Assembly (NCBI GenBank): GCA_019634005.1
Contig: JAHQWD010000002.1
Span: forward strand, 128,747-192,746
DNA: 64,000 bases
Reading direction: 5' to 3'
Source of the DNA: Candidatus Kaiserbacteria bacterium
GTDB taxonomy: Bacteria > Patescibacteriota > Minisyncoccia > Phycocordibacterales > UBA918
Positions within the stretch are counted from its first letter, which is position 1, and each line of letters starts with the position of its first letter. Of the stretch, positions 1 to 13,629 are shown piece after piece. Under the pieces are notes generated by a model, which did not search any database, was not told where the DNA came from, and saw nothing but the letters and a program-made list of their open reading frames with translations. Made by a program: the position numbers and the translations under genes.

Positions 1-47
1 TTACAGCAACTATCTTTGACGCTGACGGAACAACGCTTGATGCAAGG

Positions 48-2300
48 ATGGCCGGTGAGCCGTCTGTTGGCACCCGAGACACTCTCGTACTCAAGATCCT
101 TGGAAGTATCATCCTTCTCATTATATTGATTCTTGCCATCTATTTTGTATCCGGACGGAAAGGAAAGAAAGCGGTGGTAACAAGTACGCTCTTCCTCGGT
201 GTACTCTTCGCGGGAGGAATGATCGGCGTTGAATCTGTAGAAGCAAAAACATGGAGTGGAAGTAAAACAGGAACTTCATGTAATTATCGTGTTGAAGGAT
301 CCATCAATAAATCAACATATGATGTTGATGATACGATTCGAGCCACTGGTTCATCTATGGTGTGGTGCACAGGAAATGGTGCGCATGGTGGCGGACTTGT
401 CTCAACAAACATTTCTACGTCTGGAGACTCTGCGACCGCAGCATCTGGGGGACAAACAGTAACCCTTAATGCACCCAACTCAAATGGAAGTTATTCGGTA
501 CGTTTTAGAGACGGTGCATACAATAAAGGAGGAAACCTCAGTTACACTGTAACAGGTGCAACACCACCAGCGCCAACTGCGAACCTCTCTGCATCACCTA
601 CATCTATTACAAAAGGGGACAATACTCGTCTGACGTGGAGTTCAACAAATGCCAATGGGTGTTCCGGAAGTGGTAGCGGATTTAGTACCGGCAATAGAAC
701 CTCTGGGGGAGATAATGCTTCACCAACATCAGATACACGTTACACCGTCACGTGTACTGGAGGGGGTGGTTCAGATAGTGACTCTGTTGATGTAAGTGTC
801 TCAGAACCAACACCAACCGCATCAATCTCTGCTTCTCCTCGAACCGTTGTTCGTGGTGCTCAGACACGACTTACCTGGAGTTCATCAAATGCAGAATACT
901 GTACCGGCGTTCGTTTTGGTACCGGTCGTCGAACGTCTGGATCTACCTACGTGACGGTTAATAGTGATACAGACTATGGAATCCGCTGTTACAACAGTGA
1001 TGGGGATCTGAAGATTGCAGTTGTGAGTGTAAGTGTCACCGATCCTGCACCATCCGTCTCACTCTCTGTCTCACCAAGCAATATTACCGAAGGAGGATCT
1101 GCAACCGTGACCTGGTCTTCAACAAATGCCTCCTCATGTTCCGGAAGTGGTAGCGGATTCTCAACAGGGAACAGAACATCAGGCTCAGATGGAGTCTCCC
1201 CAAGTTCAACAACGACATATTCTATTACCTGTACGGGGCCCGGAGGTAATGATAGTGACACTGCTCGACTGACAGTAAATGCACCAGCGCCGTCAGTGAA
1301 CCTCTCTGCGTCACCAAGCAGTATTACTCGGGGGAATAGTTCGACCCTTACTTGGAGCAGTAGCAACACTTCAACATGTGCAGGAAGTGGTAGTGGCTTC
1401 AGTACCGGTGGAAATACCTCTGGCTCAGACAGCGTTTCTCCAAGTTCAACAACGACATATTCTATTACCTGTACTGGAGAAGGGGGAAGCGACTCTGACA
1501 CACAACAGGTCACGGTAAATGCACAATCACCAAGTGCAAGTATTTCCATTTCACCAAGTAGTATTACCGAAGGAGGATCTGCAACCGTGACCTGGTCTTC
1601 AACAAATGCCTCCTCATGTTCTGGTAACGGGAGCGGATTCTCAACAGGTGGTTCTACCTCAGGAAGCGACTCTGTTTCTCCTTCGAGCACTACAACGTAT
1701 ACGGTCACCTGTACAGGTGCAGGTGGAAGCGACTCTGACAGCGATACATTGACCGTGAACACACCGGCACCAAGCGCTTCTCTTGAGGTTCGGAATGTGA
1801 CACAAGGAGGAGGTTGGACTGGAAGCAATATCATCATTCTCCCAGGTGATCAGGTATATCTACGATGGGATAGTGATGACGCCACAAGTTGTAACGGAAG
1901 CAACTTCAGCACTGGTGGAGACACTGATGGAACACAAACATCAGTTTCAGAACCATCTGCCGGGAATCAAACGGTGTTCTCAGTCTCTTGTAGCGGATCA
2001 GGTGGTTCAGATAGTGACTCACTTCGAGTCACCGCTCAGGCGACCGACCCATCTCTTTCTGCTGACAGCACCAACGTACGGGAAGGGGAAACAATCACAT
2101 TCTCGTATGACATGGAGGGAAATGACCCAAGTCAATGTACACTTACGGGACCGGGCATCTCATATCTTGCTGGTTCATTCTCTAATCAGACAGGAACAGT
2201 GGAAACAACAGTGTCTGGAGACTCTACATTTATCTTGGATTGTGACGGTGGTTCCGCAGAAGTATCCATCGATATCATTCCTATTTCCTTCGATTCCTAA
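48..2300 (+). CDS. Giant cell-surface protein, paralog A. N-terminal 2-TM hairpin followed by about 7 tandem ~90-aa Ig-like repeats (LSASPSSIT..TLTWSS.NA..C.GSGSGFSTG..TSGSD.VSPSSTTTY.ITCTG.GGSDSD) and a conserved C-terminal module ending PISFDS. Likely 5'-partial, because the frame is open to nt 3.
   Basis: 750-aa ORF. Repeat periodicity and paired Cys are visible in the translation. The C-terminal ~200 aa are highly similar to the C-terminus of ORF 6125..9160. There is no in-frame stop upstream back to the window start. Confidence 0.6.
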   Translation: MAGEPSVGTRDTLVLKILGSIILLIILILAIYFVSGRKGKKAVVTSTLFLGVLFAGGMIGVESVEAKTWSGSKTGTSCNYRVEGSINKSTYDVDDTIRATGSSMVWCTGNGAHGGGLVSTNISTSGDSATAASGGQTVTLNAPNSNGSYSVRFRDGAYNKGGNLSYTVTGATPPAPTANLSASPTSITKGDNTRLTWSSTNANGCSGSGSGFSTGNRTSGGDNASPTSDTRYTVTCTGGGGSDSDSVDVSVSEPTPTASISASPRTVVRGAQTRLTWSSSNAEYCTGVRFGTGRRTSGSTYVTVNSDTDYGIRCYNSDGDLKIAVVSVSVTDPAPSVSLSVSPSNITEGGSATVTWSSTNASSCSGSGSGFSTGNRTSGSDGVSPSSTTTYSITCTGPGGNDSDTARLTVNAPAPSVNLSASPSSITRGNSSTLTWSSSNTSTCAGSGSGFSTGGNTSGSDSVSPSSTTTYSITCTGEGGSDSDTQQVTVNAQSPSASISISPSSITEGGSATVTWSSTNASSCSGNGSGFSTGGSTSGSDSVSPSSTTTYTVTCTGAGGSDSDSDTLTVNTPAPSASLEVRNVTQGGGWTGSNIIILPGDQVYLRWDSDDATSCNGSNFSTGGDTDGTQTSVSEPSAGNQTVFSVSCSGSGGSDSDSLRVTAQATDPSLSADSTNVREGETITFSYDMEGNDPSQCTLTGPGISYLAGSFSNQTGTVETTVSGDSTFILDCDGGSAEVSIDIIPISFDS
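1071..1648 (+). repeat. Near-identical ~100-bp direct DNA repeats inside the surface-protein gene (1071-1168 vs 1551-1648). Also a 35-bp exact repeat at 1201-1235 vs 1441-1475.
   Basis: There is a 59-nt exact match at 1082-1140 and 1562-1620 (tattaccgaaggaggatctgcaaccgtgacctggtcttcaacaaatgcctcctcatgtt). Confidence 0.7.
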
Positions 2301-2317
2301 TTCCTCAAAGTGGTCAG

Positions 2318-2346
2318 AAAACAGCGCAAGTATGCGCTTTTTTTGA
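2318..2346 (+). terminator. Rho-independent terminator after surface-protein gene A
   Basis: Hairpin agcgcaagtatgcgct followed by a T7 run. Confidence 0.5.
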
Positions 2347-2367
2347 TGTTAAGAACTCCTCGGAAAC

Positions 2368-2396
2368 TTGATCTATTCGCCATAATATGGTATTAT
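2368..2396 (+). promoter_or_regulatory. Sigma70-like promoter for the RTX gene: TTGATC, 17 nt spacer, TATTAT.
   Basis: Hexamers at 2368-2373 and 2391-2396. An aaaggagg SD precedes the ATG at 2466. Confidence 0.4.
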
Positions 2397-2465
2397 TGCG
2401 ATGGGTTTAGAGTACTTCGACAGCCGCTTGCACGCGGATAATATTGATGTAAAAGAAAGGAGGCA

Positions 2466-4619
2466 GTGATGCCTACGACACTAAGTCAGTTAGATCTGGC
2501 ACCTCTTCCGGTTCCGGGCACCCCGCCGGCTGTCGTAAATGACTCGACAGCGGGCTATCAAAACGTGTTTGCCATTGCGCAAATGCTGGATGAAAACGGA
2601 AACCCCGATGGCACGATTCGTGTCATCTGGTACGATGGCGAACAAGCTAAAAGCCTGCAAAAACTCTACAATGCTGACGGCTCCGTCGCGCAAGAAGAAA
2701 CAGAGTTCCTTGCGGACTCAGTTTCCGGCGTGAGCTGGCCAAACATTGTGGCGTTGAAGGGTGGAAGTTTTATCGTCAACTGGACCGAAACCCTTCCGAA
2801 TATCACTGACGGACAAGGTAATTTCGTTGCCGAGGATCATGATATCCTCGCGCAACGATTTAACCCTGACGGCACCCCTGCATGGGAGCAGGCTGTTACG
2901 GTCAACGATACGACCTACAGCAGTCAGGTATTTTCCCACGGGACGCTTCTGCAGAACGGCACGGTCGTTATTACGGAGCATTCCTATGACGAGAAAACCG
3001 ACAGCAACGAAACAGTCCATGTCTACGGACGTGTGCTGGATCCAGTTACCGGTGAACTTGGTAACGAGTTCCTGTTTGACGAGGGCATCGGTGAGGGCGG
3101 TCGTTTCGTTGAGCCCTATGTCCACCCGCTTGCGGACGGTGGTTTCATCGTCGCAGCAAAAGGGTATGTCTATGACGAAGGCGAGGGTGAGGCACTCTTT
3201 GTGCGCGCTTACAACGCTGACGGCACCTCTCGGGGTGCGGCGGTTGCCATCGACGACGGCACGTCGTTTGATGGCGATTTCTTGCAGTGGGCGACACTGA
3301 AAAGTGGCCTGATTGTTGCTGCATGGCGCAGTGACGACGGCACCACCTTCTCGTACCGCCTACTCCAAGCAGACGGTGTAACTCCGGGAAGTGATGTGAT
3401 CACCTACCCAACCGTTGAATGGGCCGGTGCAGGTCAGCCGAGCGTCTCGGCTCTTGCAGATGGTGGCTTCATCATCAGTCTGCGAGGATTCACCCATCTG
3501 CTGGACACTACGGCAGACGTGTTCGTCCAGCGGTTTGATGCTGTTGGCAATACACTGGGGGACCTCGTGCAGGTCAACGACACTCCCATTGAGGGGAACT
3601 TCGTGTATCCGGTGGCGTTTGCGGACGGTAACTTTGCCATCTTCTACAGCGCTGGTAATGGTGATGTCTTTGGGAACCAAGAGACGGATATATACAACCG
3701 TTTCTTTGTCTCTCCAGACAACCTGATCCAAGGGTCAGACGATGCAGAACTGCATCGTGGTACTCCTGGGAGGGACCAGGTCAATGCTCTCGGCGGTAAC
3801 GATACCGTCTGGGCTGGATCTGGCGACCAGGGTGCTGATACGCTTCATGGCGGCGAAGGGAACGACATCCTCGGCGGCGGTGCTGGCGATGATGTGATCC
3901 AAGGCGGTGCTGGCGATGATGTGCTCTTTGGCGGTGTCGGCGACGATTCCCTCTATGGGGGTGCTGTCAATGCCGGGGGAGTCCTTGCTGGAAACGGCTC
4001 AAACGAGATTTGGGCTGGATCCGGTGATGACTTGATCAACGGCGAAAATGGTAATGATCGTCTTGGTGGCGGTCACGGCAATGACACCATCAATGGCCTC
4101 GGCGGCGATGATCTCATCTACTCCGGTTCTACGGGGAATGAGGTTATCAATGCTGGCAATGGCAACGACGTGGCCTTTGGTGGTACCGGTGATGACATGG
4201 TCAACGGCGGTAATGGTCGTGACGAACTCTATGGCGGGTCTGGTACCGACACCGTCATTGGTGGTTTCGGTCATGACACGCTGTATGGTGGTGCTGGTGA
4301 TGATCTCATCAAAGCTGGTCCAGGAAACGATGTTTTGAACGGAAGCCTGGACGGTGATGACACCCTTGTTGGCGGCGATGGGGACGATACGTTTGTCTTT
4401 AATCTCGCCAATACGGGGGAGGATCGTATCACCGACTTTGATGTCGATGGAGACGCTCTCCGCTTTGTCGGTGAGGGGCTCCAGTCGGTAAGTGATGTGG
4501 TCAATGCTGCGACAGAAGTCGATGGCGGCGTTCTCATCACGACACCGGGCGGTGAGGTTTTCATCGATGGACTCTCACTCACCGACCTTTCCGACACATC
4601 AATGGAGTTTGGTCTTTAG
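2466..4619 (+). CDS. Secreted RTX-type protein. The N-terminal region is beta-propeller-like. The C-terminal half carries many hemolysin-type Ca-binding nonapeptide repeats (GGAGDDVIQGGAGDDVLFGG...).
   Basis: 717-aa ORF. There are more than 15 GG.G.D.. repeats in residues ~440-640. A strong SD is present. Confidence 0.7.
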   Translation: MMPTTLSQLDLAPLPVPGTPPAVVNDSTAGYQNVFAIAQMLDENGNPDGTIRVIWYDGEQAKSLQKLYNADGSVAQEETEFLADSVSGVSWPNIVALKGGSFIVNWTETLPNITDGQGNFVAEDHDILAQRFNPDGTPAWEQAVTVNDTTYSSQVFSHGTLLQNGTVVITEHSYDEKTDSNETVHVYGRVLDPVTGELGNEFLFDEGIGEGGRFVEPYVHPLADGGFIVAAKGYVYDEGEGEALFVRAYNADGTSRGAAVAIDDGTSFDGDFLQWATLKSGLIVAAWRSDDGTTFSYRLLQADGVTPGSDVITYPTVEWAGAGQPSVSALADGGFIISLRGFTHLLDTTADVFVQRFDAVGNTLGDLVQVNDTPIEGNFVYPVAFADGNFAIFYSAGNGDVFGNQETDIYNRFFVSPDNLIQGSDDAELHRGTPGRDQVNALGGNDTVWAGSGDQGADTLHGGEGNDILGGGAGDDVIQGGAGDDVLFGGVGDDSLYGGAVNAGGVLAGNGSNEIWAGSGDDLINGENGNDRLGGGHGNDTINGLGGDDLIYSGSTGNEVINAGNGNDVAFGGTGDDMVNGGNGRDELYGGSGTDTVIGGFGHDTLYGGAGDDLIKAGPGNDVLNGSLDGDDTLVGGDGDDTFVFNLANTGEDRITDFDVDGDALRFVGEGLQSVSDVVNAATEVDGGVLITTPGGEVFIDGLSLTDLSDTSMEFGL

Positions 4620-4636
4620 GGCTTTCTCAAGCCCCC

Positions 4637-4669
4637 TGTCCCCGGCACACTGTGCCGGGGGCTTTTTTT
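4637..4669 (+). terminator. Rho-independent terminator
   Basis: Hairpin ccccggcacactgtgccgggg followed by gcttttttt. Confidence 0.65.
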
Positions 4670-4739
4670 GTGCGGTGGAGATACAAGTACACATCAACCT
4701 CTGTCTTGCTGGTTTTGACAGCATTAGAATATCTTCCTC

Positions 4740-4870
4740 GTGACGGTATCTCCTACAACTACAAGGGCATTGAGCCCGATGTGGACGTGGGGGATACTCG
4801 ACACGACGACAATGAAACGGCAACAGAACGTGACGCCCAATTTATGGTTGCAGTTCGCTCTTTTAAGTAG
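4740..4870 (+). pseudogene. Remnant of an S41-peptidase C-terminus (…NYKGIEPDVDVGDTRHDDNETATERDAQF…).
   Basis: It matches the C-terminal ~35 aa of the downstream S41-like ORF (HKKIKDTREVWGDTTNFERDAQFRFAF) and the S41 GIEPD motif. It is short and lacks a plausible start. Confidence 0.35.
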
Positions 4871-5006
4871 TTCCTTGCTTTGGGTCTGTGCTTCGGCGCA
4901 GACCCATTCCCAGCCCTATAAGCCAGATACTTGATTTTTTATGTAAAGTATGGTACTATGAAATCAGTATTGAGTACCATGAAAACTGCATATTGGAGGA
5001 AAACCA

Positions 5007-5996
5007 ATGTATATCCGAATCAGTGCATGTGCACTACTTATTGCGGCAGCAGCTTTCGCTCCCGCATATGCTGGGTCACTTCCCAGTGAAATGGAGGCGG
5101 TGGTGATGAAAGAAGCAGCCTTCAACATCCGGAAAGGTCGGTGTCTTCAAACATATCGTGACCTAGTTGCTCAGAAGGAAATTGTCACACAGCCCACGAT
5201 GGGTCGGTGTGACGCTGGCTTTCTGGAGTACCTGACCGATGCAGAGTACACGTCTTTGTACGCAACTCCGCTTTTCAATCAGAGCGCTCCCAGCAACGTT
5301 TCGTTCCGACTGATCCATGGCACCACGAACACCGTCGGCTACATCCAAGCAAAAAAGGCTGTCAACAACGCAACAGGTGATGCCATCCTGGACGCTCTTC
5401 GCGTCACCAAAGAACAGACGAACTCCGCCATCATTGACACCAGAAACAACAAAGGCGGCTCCATCGTACCGTTCTTGCAGGTGGTGGTGGGTTTTGCCGA
5501 CTCCAAAGACGACGTTATCTATACGGAAACAAATCCGAAAAAAGACGATGTCGTTTGGACTGCCGGTGAAATCGTAGCACGTGTGGAAGCAGCAGGCTTC
5601 ACAACAGCCGATATCGGCGAGTTTGCCGATATGGAGGTGACGTTCCTTGTGAACGGTGCAAGCGTATCGGCAGCGGAAGATATTCCTGCCGCCGCACGCG
5701 AACTGAGCAACAACGTGTACGTTGTCGGCTCGAAAACCTACGGAAAAGGGTCGCTCCAGAAGCTCTTCGAGCTCTCGGACGGATCCAGAATGCGTGTTAC
5801 CACAGCCTTTGTTCTCTTCGGAGAGGAGCGGCGGAAGTTGAATCACAAGGGTGTGCGGCTTCACAAAAAAATCAAGGACACGCGGGAAGTCTGGGGGGAT
5901 ACAACAAATTTTGAGCGTGATGCTCAGTTCCGATTCGCGTTCCAGCGCTATGCTGGTGAGCCGGTCGAGGCGAACACAATCGTCGCCGCAAACTAA
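5007..5996 (+). CDS. S41-family (C-terminal processing / tail-specific) peptidase-like protein with a signal peptide and no PDZ domain
   Basis: NNKGGSIVPF, GASVSAAEDI and TYGKGSLQKL resemble the S41 catalytic Ser/Lys motifs. An N-terminal signal peptide and a ggagga SD are present. Confidence 0.55.
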   Translation: MYIRISACALLIAAAAFAPAYAGSLPSEMEAVVMKEAAFNIRKGRCLQTYRDLVAQKEIVTQPTMGRCDAGFLEYLTDAEYTSLYATPLFNQSAPSNVSFRLIHGTTNTVGYIQAKKAVNNATGDAILDALRVTKEQTNSAIIDTRNNKGGSIVPFLQVVVGFADSKDDVIYTETNPKKDDVVWTAGEIVARVEAAGFTTADIGEFADMEVTFLVNGASVSAAEDIPAAARELSNNVYVVGSKTYGKGSLQKLFELSDGSRMRVTTAFVLFGEERRKLNHKGVRLHKKIKDTREVWGDTTNFERDAQFRFAFQRYAGEPVEANTIVAAN

Positions 5997-6124
5997 CGTT
6001 GCATTCCTCCATGCGGTTTACTTAAGGCCCAGCGCAATGCGTTGGGCTTTTCTTTTTGCCTGTGGGTAATGAAAAGAGGTTTTTAATATTTTAGTACTAT
6101 ACTTTAAATACTAGTACTAACAGG

Positions 6125-9100
6125 TTGTCAAACCGTATATACTCTATGCACTATACAAAATATATCTTTAGTCTCACCCTCCTTTTCTTTGCTGTTACTT
6201 CAGTGTACGCACAAGAGGAGGAGTTTGAGGGCATACTTATCGCCGATGTGGGAGTACAAAATGCTTCTGTGGTGTATCAAGAGGGGCATACGCTTGATGT
6301 TTTCTTCGAGTTAGTTAACGGTGAAGCAGTGCAGCCAAATATTCGCTATGCAGTGCAGGTCGTAGAAGCGACCGAAGAAGGGGATCGGATATGGGGAGAA
6401 TACACACCAGATGATGTTATCTCGCTCGCATCGAATGAACGCCTCCACAGAAATATTACTTATACAGCGCCTGCATGGCTTGATGGTATCTATGAGGTAA
6501 GGGTTATTGTAGAGAACACCGCAGGACTTCCTTTAGGCTCCGCGTTTCTTGGTGAGGTTATGTTCTCGGGAACGGGGCAGTATGTGGAGATAGACCCAGA
6601 TTCTTGTGATGTCCTCTATGATTACGAGACACCAGTGTCCCTCACCTGTCTTGCAACGAATTATTTTGACACGACACTCGATGTATCACCGCTTTCCGAG
6701 GTGTATCGAAAGACAACACGCGGGGAAGGGGTTGGGATGTTTTGGGATGAAGCAGTGCGCTATACTTTTGGCGCGGGAGAGACGAAAGAAGTAGAATTTG
6801 TGTTTGCACCACAGCCAGGATATGGAACATACGCAGCACATGCACTTCTTGTAGGCGCACAAGGTGCAGACGTTTCAAATAGAGTGCCGTATACATATAG
6901 TACGTATGCATCACCTGCGCAGATAGAGAATATTACCGCAAATGCATCGGGATATGATGAAGATGATGAGGCGGTTATTACTGTTGCGTATGCTGCTGAC
7001 GAGACAGTATTCTTTACACTTGAACTTACCGATGAAGATGGTCGTCTGTGTAGCGAACCAATTACCGATGTTCGGTTGGCATATACAGAGTCTGTGTATA
7101 CAGCGCGCACTATCATTGATCGTTCCTGTGAACATCCGACAGCATCAGTCTTCTTGACCGCAGGTACTGGCGACGTCGTTGACGCGAGTACAATCTATCT
7201 CTCTGGATTACAGGAAGAAACGGGGAGGCTCTCTTTTAGAGATTATATGATCATACTTGCCGTCATTGTTATACTTATTCTTGCATATATGCTCTATCGT
7301 CACACACACAAGGCACGTAATACAGAGACCCTGACCCTCAGTGTTCTGTTTGTAGTGCTTGCATTTGGATTCACTACCCATTTTGCCGAGGCAGGATCTT
7401 GGAGTAGTGGCTCTTCTATCAGTGGGTGTCGAAATAGCCTGCAGGGGAACATTAACAAAAGCACCTATGAACCAGGTGAGGCAATCAGAGTCTCAATGAG
7501 AACATCGGTATCCTGTAATTCGTCCGCGACCGTGAATGGTGTCCCAATTGGTTCTGTAGGAAGTCTTAAGACAAAAATGTATACAAACACGTCTGGATCG
7601 AGTGATTCTCGAACGGGCATCAATGGTAATGGATACGGAGGAAGACTTGCGAATGGTTGTTGTTGGGGAACCACACTCACTGCTCCAGGTAGAGCAGGAA
7701 GTTACAATACAAACTTTAGATCTGTTAACTATACTCAAGAGGGAACAGGGTATTCTTCAGGACGTGGTCCTGCTCCTCGGCGGTATGTAAGTCATGGAAG
7801 TATTCGGGGAAGTGAGAGGTATCGAGTAGTTGCTACGACTCCTCCTGCGCCGACCGCGTCACTTACGGCAAGTCCTTCATCTATAGAGCGGGGAGATGAG
7901 ACAACGTTGCAGTCACGATGTACAAATAGCACGAGTGCTTCGATAAGTCGTGGTGTTGGCTCAGTTTCCTCATCGACTGATAATACCGATGTTTCTCCTA
8001 CACAGAGAACGACCTATACGCTTACCTGTAGTGGTCCTGGAGGAAGTGACAATGACAGCACAACAGTTATTGTGACCGAACCTCCCGTGCCCGCTCCAAC
8101 TGCGTCACTTACGGCGAGTCCTTCATCGATTCAGGAAGGGAATAGCACCCGCCTTATTGCTCGATGTACCAATAGTAATGCGTCATCAATTAACAATGGT
8201 GTGGGAAGCCTCTCTGCGACAGGGGGGAGACCAGTTGTCTCACCTAACTCTCCGACGACGTATAGGCTCACTTGTTTTGGAGAAGAGACCGACGCAGTTG
8301 CGACCACGCGAGTCCGCGTAACTGCGACACCTCCACCTCCACCAGCAGCACCACATGCATCAATCTCTGCTTCCCCACGAAGAATCCAAGAGGGAGAGAG
8401 TACGCGGGTCCACTGGAGTTCTTCAAACGCGGTGGAGTGTCGTAGTACATCAAGTCCACTTACCACAGGAGGTGATACAGAGGGGACTCAGAACATAACC
8501 CTCAACAGAGCACAGACAAAGACCTTCAGTATCGTTTGTGAAAATAGCGCTGGTGACACAGACAGTGCCTCAACACAAGTCACTGTTGAAGAACCGAGCG
8601 AACCAAGTGGCCCAGGATCAAGTCCTTCGCCAACGGCGACACTTGAAGTGCGCAATACTACTGGAGGAGGAGGTTGGACGTCGTCAAATATCACCATTCT
8701 TCCAGGAGACCAGATTGCGTTGCGGTGGGATTCTACCAATGCAAGTGCTTGTAGCGGAAGCAATTTCAACACAGGCAGAGCGGATGACGGAACAACAACG
8801 AGTGTAAACGAACCAACCGGGGGTAATCGTACGACGTATGCGGTGACGTGTACGGGTTCTGGCGGAAGTGACTCCGATTCACTTCGTGTTACCGCACAGG
8901 GTCTCGAGCCAGATCTATCCATTTCAGATGAGGATGTACGTCAGGGGGAATCAGTGACACTTACGTACAATATGCAAGGCAACGATCCTTCTCAGTGTTC
9001 CCTTGTTGGCCCAGGCGTCTCCTACATTGCAGGATCCTTTAGTCAACAGTCAGGATCCATTGCAATCACGATTTCTGGAGACTCGACGTTTACCCTGACC

Positions 9101-9160
9101 TGTCCAGGAGGATTTGCAGAGGCGACCGTAGAACTCATTCCAGTCATCTTTGATTCCTAG
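6125..9160 (+). CDS. Giant cell-surface protein, paralog B. Signal peptide, then a ~370-aa N-terminal domain, then an internal 2-TM hairpin, then Ig-like two-Cys tandem repeats and the conserved C-terminal module (ends PVIFDS).
   Basis: 1011-aa ORF. Residues ~375-1011 parallel ORF 48..2300, including its TM hairpin and the INKSTY segment. The last ~180 aa are about 60% identical. Confidence 0.6.
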   Translation: MSNRIYSMHYTKYIFSLTLLFFAVTSVYAQEEEFEGILIADVGVQNASVVYQEGHTLDVFFELVNGEAVQPNIRYAVQVVEATEEGDRIWGEYTPDDVISLASNERLHRNITYTAPAWLDGIYEVRVIVENTAGLPLGSAFLGEVMFSGTGQYVEIDPDSCDVLYDYETPVSLTCLATNYFDTTLDVSPLSEVYRKTTRGEGVGMFWDEAVRYTFGAGETKEVEFVFAPQPGYGTYAAHALLVGAQGADVSNRVPYTYSTYASPAQIENITANASGYDEDDEAVITVAYAADETVFFTLELTDEDGRLCSEPITDVRLAYTESVYTARTIIDRSCEHPTASVFLTAGTGDVVDASTIYLSGLQEETGRLSFRDYMIILAVIVILILAYMLYRHTHKARNTETLTLSVLFVVLAFGFTTHFAEAGSWSSGSSISGCRNSLQGNINKSTYEPGEAIRVSMRTSVSCNSSATVNGVPIGSVGSLKTKMYTNTSGSSDSRTGINGNGYGGRLANGCCWGTTLTAPGRAGSYNTNFRSVNYTQEGTGYSSGRGPAPRRYVSHGSIRGSERYRVVATTPPAPTASLTASPSSIERGDETTLQSRCTNSTSASISRGVGSVSSSTDNTDVSPTQRTTYTLTCSGPGGSDNDSTTVIVTEPPVPAPTASLTASPSSIQEGNSTRLIARCTNSNASSINNGVGSLSATGGRPVVSPNSPTTYRLTCFGEETDAVATTRVRVTATPPPPPAAPHASISASPRRIQEGESTRVHWSSSNAVECRSTSSPLTTGGDTEGTQNITLNRAQTKTFSIVCENSAGDTDSASTQVTVEEPSEPSGPGSSPSPTATLEVRNTTGGGGWTSSNITILPGDQIALRWDSTNASACSGSNFNTGRADDGTTTSVNEPTGGNRTTYAVTCTGSGGSDSDSLRVTAQGLEPDLSISDEDVRQGESVTLTYNMQGNDPSQCSLVGPGVSYIAGSFSQQSGSIAITISGDSTFTLTCPGGFAEATVELIPVIFDS

Positions 9161-9223
9161 GCTTCTTTGTTGCGTTTTTGGGCCACATACGGTATAGTGG
9201 CGGCTCAAATACATATATTCATT

Positions 9224-9487
9224 ATGCCAATTACAACAGGAGCAGCAAAAACACACCGAGCATCGCTACGAAAGCGTGTGTTTAACACTCGTCGCAAGAA
9301 TACGATGGGGGATGTCGTAAAGAAGATGCGCAAACTTGTTGCTGCAGGGAGTGTAAAAGAGGCGCAAGAACTTATGCCAACAGCCCAGAAGGCAATTGAT
9401 AAGGCAGCAAAGCGGGGAGTGATTAAAGAAAATACTGCCGCGCGCAAGAAATCCCGTCTCTCAGCGCTTGTAAAGAAAGCTTCATAA
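9224..9487 (+). CDS. rpsT: 30S ribosomal protein S20
   Basis: MPITTGAAKTHRASLRKRVFNTRRKN…AARKKSRL matches the S20 family. Start taken at the internal ATG 9224 of ORF 9167..9487. Confidence 0.85.
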   Translation: MPITTGAAKTHRASLRKRVFNTRRKNTMGDVVKKMRKLVAAGSVKEAQELMPTAQKAIDKAAKRGVIKENTAARKKSRLSALVKKAS

Positions 9488-9496
9488 AGAAATAAT

Positions 9497-9520
9497 CGGC
9501 CTCGAAGGGCCGATTTCTCA
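9497..9520 (+). terminator. Rho-independent terminator after rpsT
   Basis: Hairpin cggccctcgaagggccg followed by atttct. Confidence 0.55.
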
Positions 9521-9542
9521 TTCTCTTTTCTTGTCCTTGGTC

Positions 9543-9884
9543 CTATTTTCCCGCAAGTGCATAGAGGAGTCTCCGACTATTATCGATGTGTCGAAGGATC
9601 TTTCGATGGGTTTCGATACTCCTCTTGCGGAGTTCTGGGATTGAGGATATTTGGGACACGTAGCCTTCGGATGTTTTCAGCTCCTCTCTCAAAACAATTC
9701 CGTTTTGAAGAATCGCCGCAACCAGCCCGTGGCAGAACATATCCGCTGTCTCTGCACAGGCCGTTGCCTCAAACTCCAGGGCGTCTGTCTCGAGTTTTTC
9801 GAGAAGCTGCTCATACTTCGAGTATTCTACAGCTTGTACTGGAGTACAGCAGATAAAGAACATGATACTTACTATGACTTTCAT
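9543..9884 (-). CDS. Hypothetical secreted protein with a signal peptide
   Basis: 113-aa ORF with an N-terminal hydrophobic signal (MKVIVSIMFFICCTPVQA). Confidence 0.4.
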   Translation of the reverse strand: MKVIVSIMFFICCTPVQAVEYSKYEQLLEKLETDALEFEATACAETADMFCHGLVAAILQNGIVLREELKTSEGYVSQISSIPELRKRSIETHRKILRHIDNSRRLLYALAGK

Positions 9885-9973
9885 TTATATCACCTCCTTC
9901 CATAGTAGTTGATCCCAGTCTGCCATATATATTTTTAAATGCAAAGAGACGCCCGGTAAGGCATCTCTTCGTT

Positions 9974-10048
9974 TGGTGCTCTCGCCAGGAGTCGAACCTG
10001 GAGCACTGGTACCGCAAACCAGTATTTTATCCATTAAACTACGAGAGC
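9974..10048 (-). tRNA. tRNA-Arg (anticodon GCG), 75 nt, CCA encoded
   Basis: Manual fold: acceptor GCTCTCG/CGAGAGC, anticodon stem CTGGT/ACCAG, loop TTGCGGT, T-loop TTCGACT. Confidence 0.7.
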
Positions 10049-10067
10049 GTAGTGAGGACAGCATACC

Positions 10068-10544
10068 TCAAAAACCAAAAAATTCCAGTATCTGATGAGA
10101 CAGCGGTTCTTCAAGTTCTTCTTCAGGAAGACGAAGAGAAATAACGTCCTCAATCTCGTCTATATATTCTTCTGGAATAGGGAGGATAAGGAGTGGAGCA
10201 AACGTCTTTCGGTTTCGAAGAAGTAATTGCGGACCGTGTCGGTTCTCTACATCAAGTGCGTATCCTGCAAGTGTTGCGTATGGATAGAGATCTCCGTCGA
10301 TACGGACACCGCGAGCTGTTATTGCAAAGGGAATAGTGTGTGGATCGCGAAGCGCATGAGTAACAAGCGCCACTGCACCGAAGATGATAACAAGGCCAAA
10401 TAGAATGTTTCCAAAAATAAAAGCCGCCGCCGCGCTCGCGATGGTAAGGAGTCCGACAACCCAAAACCAATCGGTGGTCTTTTCAATATGAGCGTGCTCT
10501 GGCGCTTCCCATGTAATGGATTGGATAACCTCTTCTGTTGCCAT
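10068..10544 (-). CDS. Hypothetical membrane protein, last gene of the zur-znu operon
   Basis: 158-aa ORF with two TM helices. It is co-directional with and tightly spaced to znuB. Confidence 0.45.
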   Translation of the reverse strand: MATEEVIQSITWEAPEHAHIEKTTDWFWVVGLLTIASAAAAFIFGNILFGLVIIFGAVALVTHALRDPHTIPFAITARGVRIDGDLYPYATLAGYALDVENRHGPQLLLRNRKTFAPLLILPIPEEYIDEIEDVISLRLPEEELEEPLSHQILEFFGF

Positions 10545-10568
10545 ATAGAAGATTGTAGCACGGAGAAC

Positions 10569-11366
10569 TTATCGTCGTGCAAAGAGGGTCGTTAACAAAA
10601 AGAGGAAGAGTGCAACAAGGACGATAACTCCTCCAGTTGCGAGATCGAAATAGAATGAAAGAAGCATACCTGAGGTAACAGAAAAGAGGGATACAAACTC
10701 TGCGTAGAGTAGTGTGCGTAAAAAACTCTGCTTTAGTTGGAGTGCGGCAAGTACAGGTATGACAATGAGTGCGGAGATAAGAAGGATCCCCACTACAGGA
10801 ATAGCAAGAGAGATAGTGACTGCCGCAAGGATAATGAGGACGGTATTTAGTAGTCCAACAGGGATGCCAGAGACACGAGCATATTCCTCGTCAAACGCTA
10901 TCGCGATTAGTTCTTTGTAGAAAATGAGTACGAGCACCGCTACGACAACGGCGAGAACGGCAATGACGTAGATGTCAGTTTGGGTCACGGTTACAATACT
11001 CCCAAAGAGATAGTTAAAAAGGTTTGAGGTAAACCCTTTTCCAAGAGAAAGCAGTACGGTCGCGATGGCAAGACTCCCTGAGAGAAAGAGTGCAAGTGCA
11101 GATTCTCCGTAGAGACGTTTTGTTGCACGAAGTCGTTCAAGGCCAAGTGACGACAATACCGTGACACCAAGTGCGGTGAAGAAAGGATTCATGTTTGCAA
11201 GAAGACCCACAGCGATACCCGCAAGAGAGGCGTGTGCGAGCGTGTCGGCAATAAGGGAATACCGACGAAGTACGAGAAAGATGCCGATAAGGGGTGCAAT
11301 GAAACCGACAATGAGTCCTGCCTCAAATCCACGAACGATAAAACTATAGGTGAAGATCTCAAACAT
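10569..11366 (-). CDS. znuB: Metal (Zn/Mn) ABC transporter permease, ABC-3 family
   Basis: 265 aa, 8 TM. It shares the N-terminal ABC-3 permease pattern and sits in an operon with the ATPase and SBP. Confidence 0.8.
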   Translation of the reverse strand: MFEIFTYSFIVRGFEAGLIVGFIAPLIGIFLVLRRYSLIADTLAHASLAGIAVGLLANMNPFFTALGVTVLSSLGLERLRATKRLYGESALALFLSGSLAIATVLLSLGKGFTSNLFNYLFGSIVTVTQTDIYVIAVLAVVVAVLVLIFYKELIAIAFDEEYARVSGIPVGLLNTVLIILAAVTISLAIPVVGILLISALIVIPVLAALQLKQSFLRTLLYAEFVSLFSVTSGMLLSFYFDLATGGVIVLVALFLFLLTTLFARR

Positions 11367-11369
11367 AGA

Positions 11370-12089
11370 TTAATGGTGATGTGCTTGTATGCCGTATTCT
11401 TCTGGCGTTTCATGAAAGAAGACGGTGCAATCGACGCAAGCAATATGCATCGCTTCATGGGCAACAGACTCAAGATCATGAGTAACCAACACCACAGTCA
11501 ATTCCAACTCCTCGTTTAGTTTCTTGATTAGTGCATAGAACTCTTCTCGAATCTCCTGTTCTACTCCCACGGTTGGCTCATCGAGGAAGAGTACTTCTGG
11601 ACGACCAGCAAGGGCTCGGGCGATAAAGACACGTTGTTGCTGTCCACCAGAAAGCGATCCAATTTGCCGATCACGATACGCTTCCATATCAACAGCAGCA
11701 AGCGCATCGGTGACTGCGGCCATATCTCGCTCATCGGTTGTGCGAAAGAGTCCACGCCCATGTCGCCCCATCAGCACAACTTCTTCGACTGTAGCAGGGA
11801 AGGAGGGGTCGAACGAAGTTGCTTTTTGTGGCACATACCCAATACGGGCATGTTCTGTAAACTTCCGAATATCTTGTCCAAAAAGACGAACGGTACCGTT
11901 CGTTGGTTTCATCAAGCCTAAAATAATTTTCAGGAGTGTTGTTTTTCCAGAACCATTGCGTCCTACGATAGCAAGGTAGTCTCCTTTGTGGATTGAGAAA
12001 GAGACATCATGAAGCACCTCATATTCTCCGTAGGAGAATGAGATATTTTCAAGTTCAATAATATTTTCCGAGTGATCAACTGCAGGCAT
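11370..12089 (-). CDS. znuC: Metal ABC transporter ATP-binding protein
   Basis: Walker A GRNGSGKTT, signature LSGGQQQRV, Walker B LFLDEP. The ATG at 12089 lies 2 nt after the znuA stop. The track ORF begins at an upstream GTG at 12104. Confidence 0.8.
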   Translation of the reverse strand: MPAVDHSENIIELENISFSYGEYEVLHDVSFSIHKGDYLAIVGRNGSGKTTLLKIILGLMKPTNGTVRLFGQDIRKFTEHARIGYVPQKATSFDPSFPATVEEVVLMGRHGRGLFRTTDERDMAAVTDALAAVDMEAYRDRQIGSLSGGQQQRVFIARALAGRPEVLFLDEPTVGVEQEIREEFYALIKKLNEELELTVVLVTHDLESVAHEAMHIACVDCTVFFHETPEEYGIQAHHH

Positions 12090-12091
12090 GC

Positions 12092-13096
12092 CTATAGTGT
12101 ACACCCAAGGGCCTCAGTGAGACTATCGAGGTTTGCGTACATCACTGTAAAATATGTTTCACCATGATCCTGCTCTTCCGCAGTGAGTCCTCCGAGTGGA
12201 TTGAGCACCAATGTCTCTGCACCGATTTCTTGTGCAAGTGTTTCTGCGAGACGAGGGGATACCAGTGTCTCAAAGAATACGTGAGTTACCCCATGCTCTT
12301 CTGCAAATGTACTGATCTCTGCAAGGTCTGCAGCCGATGGTTCCGCTTCTGGCGAGAGACCGCTAATAGGAAGTTGTTCGAGTTCGTATGCTTCTGCTAG
12401 ATACCAGAAGGCGTCATGTGAGGTTACGATAGTCCGTGAGGTACATACAGAGAGTGCATTGCGGTAGTCTGCATCAAGCGTCTGCAGTTTTGCGATAAGT
12501 GCACTGGCATTTTCTCGATAGATAGACTCATGCGCAGGATCAGCCAGTACGAACCCTTTCACAATTTCTTCCACCATGAGCATTGCTTTCTCTGGAGAAA
12601 GCCAGACGTGCGGATCAAGTCCTTCGTGGTGATGTTCTTCCTCCTCATGCTCGTCTTCATGATCGTGATCCTCATGTTCATCATGATCTTCTTCGTGCTC
12701 GTGCATTTCGTCTTCGTGATGTTCCTCCTCCTCAAATTCCCGAGTCATGAAGTCTTCACCTGCAAGTACGATGACAATCTCGTCAGCAGAAAGATTTTCG
12801 AGTACATCATGTTCCCATGGCTCAAAGCCACCGCCGTTAAGAATCAATACATCGCTCTTCTCCATAGTAATGATGTCCCGTGGAGTAGGTTCATATTCAT
12901 GTGGTTCTGCTCCCGCAGGAACAACATTGTGTATATCTGCATATTCGCCACCAATCTCAGAGGCAAAGAAATAGAGGGGATAAAAACTAGTGACCACAGA
13001 AAGTTCGTCGGTATGTTCGGTAGGAGTATCCATATACGACGCTACCCCAAAACCGATAACAAGCACGACAACAAGAAATATAAGTATGTTTTTCAT
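12092..13096 (-). CDS. znuA: Metal ABC transporter substrate-binding protein with a His/Glu/Asp-rich flexible loop (ZnuA-like)
   Basis: 334 aa. The loop HHEDEMHEHEEDHDEHEDHDHEDEHEEEEHHHEG is typical of ZnuA. An N-terminal signal is present. Confidence 0.8.
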   Translation of the reverse strand: MKNILIFLVVVLVIGFGVASYMDTPTEHTDELSVVTSFYPLYFFASEIGGEYADIHNVVPAGAEPHEYEPTPRDIITMEKSDVLILNGGGFEPWEHDVLENLSADEIVIVLAGEDFMTREFEEEEHHEDEMHEHEEDHDEHEDHDHEDEHEEEEHHHEGLDPHVWLSPEKAMLMVEEIVKGFVLADPAHESIYRENASALIAKLQTLDADYRNALSVCTSRTIVTSHDAFWYLAEAYELEQLPISGLSPEAEPSAADLAEISTFAEEHGVTHVFFETLVSPRLAETLAQEIGAETLVLNPLGGLTAEEQDHGETYFTVMYANLDSLTEALGCTL

Positions 13097-13099
13097 AGA

Positions 13100-13507
13100 T
13101 TAACTACATGATTTACAAAGCCCGAAGAACTCCAGGGAGTGCCCAGTAATGGATGCGAACCCTCGTGCCTCTTTGAGTGCATCGCGAGAGAGTAACTCCT
13201 CGTGACATGAGGATACATCTGCAATTTTATGGCACGAGGTGCAGACAACATGATGATGTCCGTGACCATCAGGGGCAAGTTCATAGGAGATACTTCCCGT
13301 TCCAAGATTCACTTCCTTCACGATTCCTGCTCCTTTTGCTGCATCAATGATGCGGTATACCGTCACAGGATCAACAACGGCACCCAGTTTTTCTGCAATC
13401 TCTGAGATAGAGATAGGCACACGTTGTTGCTCGAGAAATGAAAGGACTGCAATACGTGACTTTGTCGCGCGAAGTCCAGAGTCTCTAAGAAGGGAAACAA
13501 TATCCAT
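13100..13507 (-). CDS. zur: Fur-family metalloregulator, likely Zur
   Basis: DNA-binding helix region, HHHVVCTSCH and C-terminal CKSC metal sites. Start taken at the ATG 13507 (MDIVSLLRDSGLRATK). A start at 13621 would place the operator palindrome inside the CDS. Confidence 0.7.
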   Translation of the reverse strand: MDIVSLLRDSGLRATKSRIAVLSFLEQQRVPISISEIAEKLGAVVDPVTVYRIIDAAKGAGIVKEVNLGTGSISYELAPDGHGHHHVVCTSCHKIADVSSCHEELLSRDALKEARGFASITGHSLEFFGLCKSCS

Positions 13508-13515
13508 AATCGGAG

Positions 13516-13552
13516 TGTATAGTACCTGCAAAAAAATTGCAAGTACTATACA
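13516..13552. promoter_or_regulatory. 16-5-16 inverted repeat (TGTATAGTACCTGCAA aaaaa TTGCAAGTACTATACA, 1 mismatch). Candidate Zur/Fur-type operator in the divergent promoter region.
   Basis: Seen directly. It is immediately upstream of the zur start and within the 120-bp gap to the divergent thioredoxin-like gene. Confidence 0.5.
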
Positions 13553-13629
13553 CAGGGTAATGTTAAGTCTGCTTGACATGTCCGAAGTGAACGCTATCAT
13601 AGAGTCATTAGTGATAAGCACATATATCT

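Follow-up and report, generated by a model that had tools for sequence, protein, structure and literature searches.

Several viruses make their surface glycoproteins as polyproteins: flavivirus prM-E-NS1 and bunyavirus Gn-Gc are processed by host signal peptidase into products that arise in a 1:1 ratio and often stay associated. In bacteria, the cytochrome b-c1 precursor FbcH of Bradyrhizobium japonicum is a polyprotein that is split at an internal signal peptide, and the exported precursor SlpA of Clostridioides difficile is cut by the cysteine protease Cwp84 into subunits that are non-covalently associated and rely on CWB2 anchoring. Patescibacteria have been reported to have surface layers. 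Bacteria of the candidate phyla radiation (CPR) are ultra-small and mostly episymbiotic, and the making of their envelope and their attachment to hosts are poorly understood. Here we describe ORF B, a forward-strand open reading frame (ORF) in a 64,000-nucleotide stretch of a Candidatus Kaiserbacteria bacterium genome (NCBI GenBank assembly GCA_019634005.1, contig JAHQWD010000002.1, positions 128,747 to 192,746; hereafter the window). Sequence comparison identifies ORF B as one genuine gene of a large, unnamed Patescibacteria/CPR surface-protein family, and its product is probably a polyprotein-like precursor that would be cut by signal peptidase I (SPase I) at an internal signal peptide. The parts are known ones, Sec signal-peptidase processing and immunoglobulin (Ig)-repeat surface proteins; their arrangement is not described for bacterial surface proteins. 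In the literature we found no description of the family, of bacterial internal signal peptides or of such processing in Patescibacteria, only work on viral polyproteins (PMC3437442, PMC7926653) and on a Streptomyces Rieske protein whose internal signal peptide is left uncleaved (PMC13186574).

ORF B reads through without a stop as one frame of 1011 amino acids (aa), consistent with the preliminary description of this DNA, which had noted a single frame spanning two dissimilar parts. A Kyte-Doolittle scan found just two internal hydrophobic segments, here called transmembrane segments TM1 and TM2. A matching pair lies close to the listed start of ORF A, a paralog of ORF B that is cut by the window edge. 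Residues 375-423, of which residue 375 is encoded by ATG 7247, read MIILAVIVILILAYMLY-RHTHKARNTE-TLTLSVLFVVLAFGFTTHFAEA. An exhaustive HMMER search with residues 1-472 as the query, run against 1.84 billion representatives of clusters at 50% identity, matched 1018 clusters at E<=1e-3; the number falls to 782 at E<=1e-10 and to 36 at E<=1e-30. Of the 150 homologs listed, most align in one stretch from about residue 15 to about residue 460, which takes in the N-terminal part, the two hydrophobic segments and the beginning of the domain that follows. Architecture was scored on the best 150 sequences, namely ORF B and its top 149 homologs of the 1018. In the fused class, a signal peptide precedes an N-terminal module (N-module) that spans about 370-400 aa and is followed by two hydrophobic segments and further residues. 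This class accounts for 140/150; eight sequences end 3-13 residues past the first hydrophobic segment and two are truncated earlier. In the 137 fused homologs with a resolved TM pair, 34-1123 residues (median 387) follow TM2. An independent sample of GTDB representative Patescibacteria genomes, fetched through the conserved peptide TIQNLxLDK, supplied 30 loci, and here all 27 genes that were complete enough run in frame through TM1, a basic loop, TM2 and the next domain. In this sample three genes run off contig ends, one is frameshifted, and two Gracilibacteria loci are unreadable with translation table 11. A contig scan of genomes with residues 1-472 gave no match, and word-index searches were nearly blind to the family, one returning five matches, mostly through the repeats, and another a single match.

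These counts bear directly on whether the fusion is real. The preliminary description had left two options, a genuine in-frame fusion or a merger of two genes through a frameshift or the loss of a stop. In the latter case a gene for a type I membrane protein and one for a secreted repeat protein would have been joined near 7240, where an indel arose or a stop was lost, a reading to which some weight is lent by the existence of split arrangements (8/150 homologs, including those at loci L001 and L003) and by a frameshift in the family gene of one homolog locus, L015. The continuous form is nevertheless the family norm: it recurs in 140/150 homologs and in 27/27 complete genomic genes, across independent assemblies and samples, as well as in the in-window paralog ORF A and in both orthologs at a syntenic locus, and P0006 (1028 aa) and P0008 (1054 aa) are full-length ORF B orthologs with the terminal 180 residues included. 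Moreover, true split loci have another gene between the two parts, not one stop. Since the two-part pattern recurs in hundreds of homologs, it lies far beyond chance, and we regard a merger artefact as exceedingly improbable. The possibility that orthologs always occur as separate genes was also looked at; split forms exist, as a minority only, and by comparison of their sequences they are evidence on the mechanism and not against the fusion. At L015 the frameshifted gene occupies two overlapping frames (1054-5264), and the Gracilibacteria loci L030 and L031 contain no table-11 ORFs, consistent with genetic code 25.

The 5' end of the gene is probably ATG 6146. This codon is favoured over TTG 6125 because it is the start in the NCBI record, in which ORF B is the hypothetical protein KTR10_01020 (P0001; Candidatus Kaiserbacteria bacterium; 1004 aa), and because it leaves a 22-aa signal peptide, as is typical of the family. 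TTG 6125 is only the mechanical longest start, and a clear Shine-Dalgarno sequence precedes neither 6125 nor 6146. Terminator-like hairpins lie 3' of the two genes upstream of ORF B (4638-4662 and 6024-6050); the junction within ORF B displays no conspicuous terminator-like or promoter-like element. The segment opening at ATG 7247 mirrors the hairpin of ORF A, as first proposed, by hydropathy and by BLASTP. As a translation start, ATG 7247 fares poorly. The Met is not conserved in the family alignment, where gaps make up most of its column and a variety of residues fills the remainder (T8, I6, S5, P5 and K5 are the commonest), and the sequence GGGGAGG at 7221-7227, 19 nt upstream, is too distant and lies inside coding sequence; an internal start at 7247 was therefore rejected.

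With continuity established, the question becomes which parts of the protein face outward. The N-terminal signal peptide, SP1, was correctly recognised from the outset: residues 1-29 are signal-peptide-like and end VYA/QEE (the slash marks a predicted cut), and the Ala at -1 is kept in 110/121 homologs, placing A29 on the short list of nearly invariant columns. Within the N-module, Cys161/Cys175 and Cys309/Cys335 are nearly invariant in the family alignment, and such conserved Cys pairs would be typical of exported domains. The loop between the two hydrophobic segments bears a median net charge of +4 in 115 homologs, compared with +1 for the 15 residues before TM1 and -1 for the 15 residues after TM2, and Lys or Arg dominates loop columns 392, 396 and 398. 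Because of this positive charge, the positive-inside rule places the loop in the cytoplasm and both modules outside, predicting an out-in-out topology in which the N-module and the C-terminal module (C-module) are both extracytoplasmic. The preliminary description had instead proposed that the extra domain, the N-terminal 370 residues, is cytoplasmic or occupies the N-in end of the hairpin, the repeats alone being exported. Beyond the presence of a hairpin, nothing further speaks for such a layout. The conserved cleavable signal peptide, the conserved Cys pairs together with an all-beta Ig-like fold typical of exported proteins, and a positive charge that sits in the loop and not before TM1 all run counter to it, making it very improbable.

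The fold of the N-module was predicted with AlphaFold2 (AF2), which returned three beta-sandwiches with a predicted local distance difference test score (pLDDT) >90 over residues 40-360 and a predicted template modelling score (pTM) of 0.79, followed by helices at 371-395 and 401-415. Residues 1-370 had been described as lacking Ig-like repeats, which holds at the level of sequence but not of the model, given its three beta-sandwich domains. For residues 424-1011, AF2 gave six beta-sandwich beads (pLDDT 80.7, pTM 0.39), the low pTM being as expected from a model of beads on a string. Foldseek matched this part to multi-Ig chains, for example GhpA, titin, alpha-2-macroglobulins and an archaeal S-layer protein, and on the models the modules of ORF B are predicted to adopt the Ig-like beta-sandwich fold, with all-beta domains that resemble known Ig-like, Fn3 or CBM domains. 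The first bead, or post-hairpin domain, is conserved in the family and the part that follows is variable; the C-modules of relatives carry CARDB, NHL, PKD or TSP1 domains. In ORF A and ORF B there was nothing in Pfam-A at or above the gathering score and nothing in NCBIfam above the cut-off, a PDB sequence search gave no match, and neither did Pfam on the N-module of seven typical family members. The sub-threshold Pfam and NCBIfam hits (DUF4131, DUF6056, Emfourin and IcmV) were dismissed as noise, three of the four falling on the hairpin and Emfourin on residues 627-663 in the repeats.

The evidence for processing centres on TM2. The (-3,-1) rule is obeyed at its end in 116/116 sequences of the family alignment: the -3 column is A73/V34/T4/S3/L1 and the -1 column A111/G4/T1, so that Ala423 ranks among the nearly invariant columns of the whole alignment. 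At +1 the commonest residues are D50/V11/A11/N8/Y6, the remainder not being itemised, and at +2 T88/S16. A lipobox, as would be used by SPase II, was not seen at TM2, Cys not being among the six commonest +1 residues and ORF B having Gly at this position. From the first basic loop residue to -1 the median distance is 32 residues, with an uncharged run of 22. Median peak hydropathy (maximum 15-aa window) is 3.29 for TM1, 2.52 for TM2 and 2.37 for SP1, and TM1 is more hydrophobic than TM2 in 131/137 homologs. Residues 392-423 of ORF B thus show the features of an SPase I signal peptide, with a basic n-region (RHTHKAR), a moderate h-region and an AxA motif. Ahead of TM1, alignment columns 360-375 contain no conserved sortase, exosortase or rhombosortase signal (LPXTG, PEP-CTERM or GlyGly-CTERM), and a conserved sorting motif was ruled out on these columns. 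By comparison, P0003 (1705 aa), a non-CPR repeat homolog, contains GGGALEWFSLLILLAIRAGRTLRR internally, after which comes a new signal peptide; its C-terminus has the same GlyGly-CTERM-like signal. Its sequence suggests that here, too, two exported proteins have been fused end to end, and it carries GGG-type sorting signals, unlike the TM1 region of the ORF B family.

The main alternative, with the same gene and the same topology, is that TM2 stays uncleaved, leaving one polypeptide with a mid-chain helical hairpin and an ectodomain on each side. The topology evidence is equally compatible with this, and the AF2 model shows the adjacent helices 371-395 and 401-415. To our knowledge, natural internal SPase I sites are rare in bacteria, which gives cleavage a low prior. 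The Streptomyces Rieske protein provides a precedent for an internal signal peptide that is not cut (PMC13186574). An uncleaved hairpin leaves unexplained, however, why small residues at -3 and -1 are near-invariant (116/116, with Ala at -1 in 111/116) and why the hydrophobicity of TM2 matches SP1 and not TM1; in addition, the signal peptide of split C-modules is a normal cleavable one, and its end falls at the homologous position. We therefore consider an uncleaved TM2 unlikely.

The split forms were checked in genome context for two of the eight short homologs (loci L001 and L003). In both, the N-module gene ends about 10 aa beyond TM1 and is followed by a gene for a lipobox lipoprotein and then by a third gene, whose product begins with a signal peptide of the form MKK...VQA/DTY or MKF...VYA/DTY, followed by the post-hairpin domain. 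A profile hidden Markov model (HMM) of the hairpin and post-hairpin region matches the third-gene products from within the signal-peptide region onward (E-values in Table 1), so that the predicted cut of the split C-module would be homologous to A423/G424. The intervening lipoproteins of the two loci are weakly similar to each other (24% over 148 aa, pairwise E 5e-4). The architecture can also be extended: P0075 (1386 aa) is arranged SP-X-TM-SP-Nmodule-TM-SP-C with two anchor and internal-signal-peptide units, and P0007 (869 aa, Candidatus Yonathbacteria) has an extra module in front of the N-module. Because P0075 and P0007 repeat it, the anchor and internal-signal-peptide unit appears iterable. 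Together, the split and iterated forms are the strongest indirect arguments for an SPase I cut in the fused precursor.

Based on these comparisons, the precursor would be laid out as SP1, N-module, TM1, basic loop, SP2 (the internal signal peptide) and C-module, the latter consisting of a constant first domain and variable Ig-like or adhesin-type repeats. SP1 would carry the N-module over the membrane via Sec, TM1 would halt transfer and anchor the N-module, and the basic loop would be kept in the cytoplasm. The second hydrophobic segment would then restart export as an internal signal peptide, bringing the C-module outside, and SPase I would most likely cut after AEA, between A423 and G424, leaving a neo-N-terminus at G424 with the peptide GSWSSGSSISGCR. 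The products would arise 1:1, as an N-fragment anchored in the membrane, comprising the ectodomain and the helical hairpin, and a C-fragment without an anchor of its own. ORF B has no C-terminal anchor, and because of this the C-fragment would be free after cleavage unless bound. It might be released or, more likely, retained on the cell via its conserved first domain, with the variable binding repeats exposed. The N-module and the post-hairpin domain are always paired, either fused or in one operon, which suggests that they may interact.

Sequence and comparison establish that the layout is continuous and conserved and that charge is biased towards the loop, as well as the signal-peptide features of TM2 and the existence of split variants; we infer the cut at A423/G424 itself from these same sources. 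The signal-peptide case for TM2 comes from our own column statistics and hydropathy scripts. Against such processing weighs the low prior noted above; a motif scan of the 64-kb window also found no signal peptidase I gene, the enzyme being assumed to exist in the organism. Association of the fragments is speculative, as is an adhesion or surface-layer role, which is read from domain types.

Table 1. Coordinates of ORF B, its paralog ORF A and related features (window positions unless a locus is named; / marks a predicted cut).
Feature	Position	Strand	Remarks
ORF B, whole precursor gene	6125..9160	+	single ORF, 1011 aa from TTG 6125
SP1, N-terminal signal peptide	6125..6211	+	predicted cleavage VYA/QEE after residue 29; model helix 4-22
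N-module ectodomain (predicted)	6212..7234	+	~340 aa; beta-sandwiches at about residues 36-148, 154-260, 265-358
TM1, putative stop-transfer membrane anchor MIILAVIVILILAYMLY	7247..7297	+	hydropathy scan; AlphaFold2 helix 371-395
Basic loop RHTHKARNTE, predicted cytoplasmic; n-region of putative internal signal peptide	7298..7327	+	K/R-rich columns, charge
TM2, h- and c-regions of putative internal signal peptide, ends AEA	7328..7393	+	predicted SPase I cut A423/G424
Post-hairpin beta domain, residues 424-568, motif N..K.TY.PGE.I	7394..7828	+	alignments, consensus, HMM matches, AF2
Five Ig-like beads, residues 577-651, 659-733, 744-822, 837-924, 930-1004	7853..9136	+	AF2, Foldseek
ORF A, window-edge-cut paralog of ORF B	3..2300	+	listed ORF starts at ATG 48
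ORF A, end of N-module	3-83	+	open frame
ORF A, TM1	84-149	+	hydropathy scan
ORF A, basic loop SGRKGKK	150-170	+	
ORF A, putative internal signal peptide ending VEA	171-245	+	
ORF A, C-module	246-2297	+	
Highly conserved C-terminal ~180 aa	8621-9157 (ORF B), 1761-2297 (ORF A)	+	L005 genes 3746-6448, 8001-11165
Split locus L001	6001-8877		N-module gene P0155 (423 aa, TM1 and short tail); then lipobox lipoprotein; third gene
L001, third gene			MKKIFLVLSLFTLFTFVHYDEVQA/DTYAVGG...NSATYSPGEQIR; HMM E 1.8e-18
Split locus L003	5001-8053		N-module gene P0018 (431 aa); then lipobox lipoprotein; third gene
L003, third gene			MKFFQCLSVITAFCFVLVLGTNTVYA/DTYTLGA...NSGTYTPSG; HMM E 3.6e-19

ORF A offers a second view of the same architecture. 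Its frame continues open as far as base 1 of the window, and the sequence that precedes ATG 48, TATIFDADGTTLDAR, resembles the end of the N-terminal part of ORF B, TASVFLTAGTGDVVDAS. BLASTP aligned the two proteins with 34% identity over 583 columns from residue 388, that is from the hairpin onward, and with 48% over the last 445. The relative locus L005, that of P0008, is syntenic with the window, containing genes for an RTX protein, an S41 peptidase, the ORF B ortholog, rpsT, a znuCBA-type ABC transporter and a Fur-family (PF01475) regulator. Its A-type gene (3746-6448) encodes the whole architecture in one product of 900 aa, which starts with MFKYAALFLFFISTPFFAFA/QEGG as its signal peptide and continues with an N-module of two sandwiches, TM1, a loop reading RSANPKQK, the sequence ...GFAQQADA/VTW, repeats and a terminal ...ELIPVVYDS. 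The earlier suggestion that ORF A shares the two-part layout is thus upheld both by the open upstream frame and by this ortholog. The last ~180 residues of ORF A, ORF B and both L005 orthologs stand out from the rest by their much higher conservation (phmmer E 1e-94 to 1e-121), and this terminal domain ends in IP[VI]xFDS or IPVVYDS, the form in ORF B being IPVIFDS. Tandem paralog pairs resembling ORF A and ORF B also occur at L013, L019 and L022, and the terminal domain of the two proteins is found in P0084, P0090, P0142 and P0024 as well.

Between ORF A and ORF B lies a gene for a 717-aa protein (2466-4619, forward strand) with eight matches to the RTX (HemolysinCabind) Ca-binding repeat and a beta-propeller-like N-terminal part; its ortholog in L005 is upstream of the A-type gene, so that the order of the two is swapped relative to the window. 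Directly upstream of ORF B, a secreted S41 (C-terminal processing) peptidase is encoded at 5007-5996 (forward strand), and in L005 an S41 gene with a PDZ domain precedes the ORF B ortholog. No S41 gene was found in the other 30 family loci. A family-level functional link of the S41 peptidase or of the RTX protein with ORF B was discarded, their co-occurrence being limited to the close relative L005; that the peptidase might trim the conserved ...IPVIFDS C-terminus is only a thought. Further along, the reverse strand at 10569-13621 holds an ordinary-looking zinc-uptake cluster, likewise syntenic with L005, made up of znuB-like and znuC-like genes, a ZnuA with a long His/Glu/Asp-rich insert and a Fur/Zur-like regulator. 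Large ORFs are all on the forward strand from 14 kb to 55.7 kb and all on the reverse strand beyond 56 kb, and the cumulative GC skew ceases rising at the same place, ~55,700-56,100, which could be a replication origin, a terminus or an operon-block boundary.

Named records of the family come from Kaiserbacteria, Yonathbacteria, Campbellbacteria, Moraniibacteriota, Paceibacterota, Minisyncoccota and the Parcubacteria or Patescibacteria group, with one further record from Saccharibacteria and two from Gracilibacteria. Two metagenome-assembled genomes with family members are, going by their labels, Alpha- or Gammaproteobacteria. All source annotations retrieved, for six homologs and for the ORF B record, read 'hypothetical protein'. 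It is possible, if on the doubtful side, that Patescibacteria, mainly Parcubacteria/Paceibacteria, have lineage-wide cellular polyproteins in which one to three exported modules are joined by anchor and internal-signal-peptide units and separated by SPase I, giving a stoichiometric complex in which a membrane stalk is paired with a distal adhesin. Were this so, the complex may be a main component of the surface layer or of the host-attachment apparatus, and its making would represent an unrecognised biogenesis route for bacterial surface structures and a bacterial counterpart to viral glycoprotein polyprotein processing. With ~1000 clusters, a fixed mid-chain anchor and a near-invariant AxA, the family provides a testable hypothesis, that of a two-piece surface complex made from one gene, and if cleaved it would be one of the rare natural instances in which a bacterial signal peptidase acts at an internal site. 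For annotation, ORF B-type ORFs should be kept unsplit and the hairpin not be taken as an N-terminus. The family is also relevant for topology and signal-peptide predictors, which are usually confined to N-termini.

Taken together, the proposed route for ORF B shares elements with each of the systems described at the outset. FbcH is a bacterial precedent for one ORF that yields two proteins of the membrane or periplasm by way of an internal signal peptide and signal peptidase, as is proposed for ORF B; it differs in being a respiratory enzyme of unrelated sequence and a single case, as opposed to a family of ~1000 clusters. A likeness to SlpA would lie in a single exported precursor that yields two surface subunits, whereas ORF B lacks CWB2 or any other Pfam domain and would be anchored by a TM helix and cut by SPase I, not Cwp84. 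Adhesins with Ig-like repeats (the CARDB, PKD and Big families, and GhpA) resemble ORF B at the fold level in being strings of beta-sandwich domains and differ in that ORF B matches no Pfam repeat family; we know of no adhesin that is built on a mid-chain anchor plus an internal signal peptide. Unlike the viral glycoprotein polyproteins, ORF B belongs to a cellular bacterial family without kinship to them in sequence or fold, and the enzyme for the cleavage that we infer would be bacterial SPase I. In its order of parts, ORF B nonetheless parallels these polyproteins element by element, from an ectodomain, an anchor helix and a short cytoplasmic loop to an internal signal helix, a predicted signal peptidase site and the next ectodomain.

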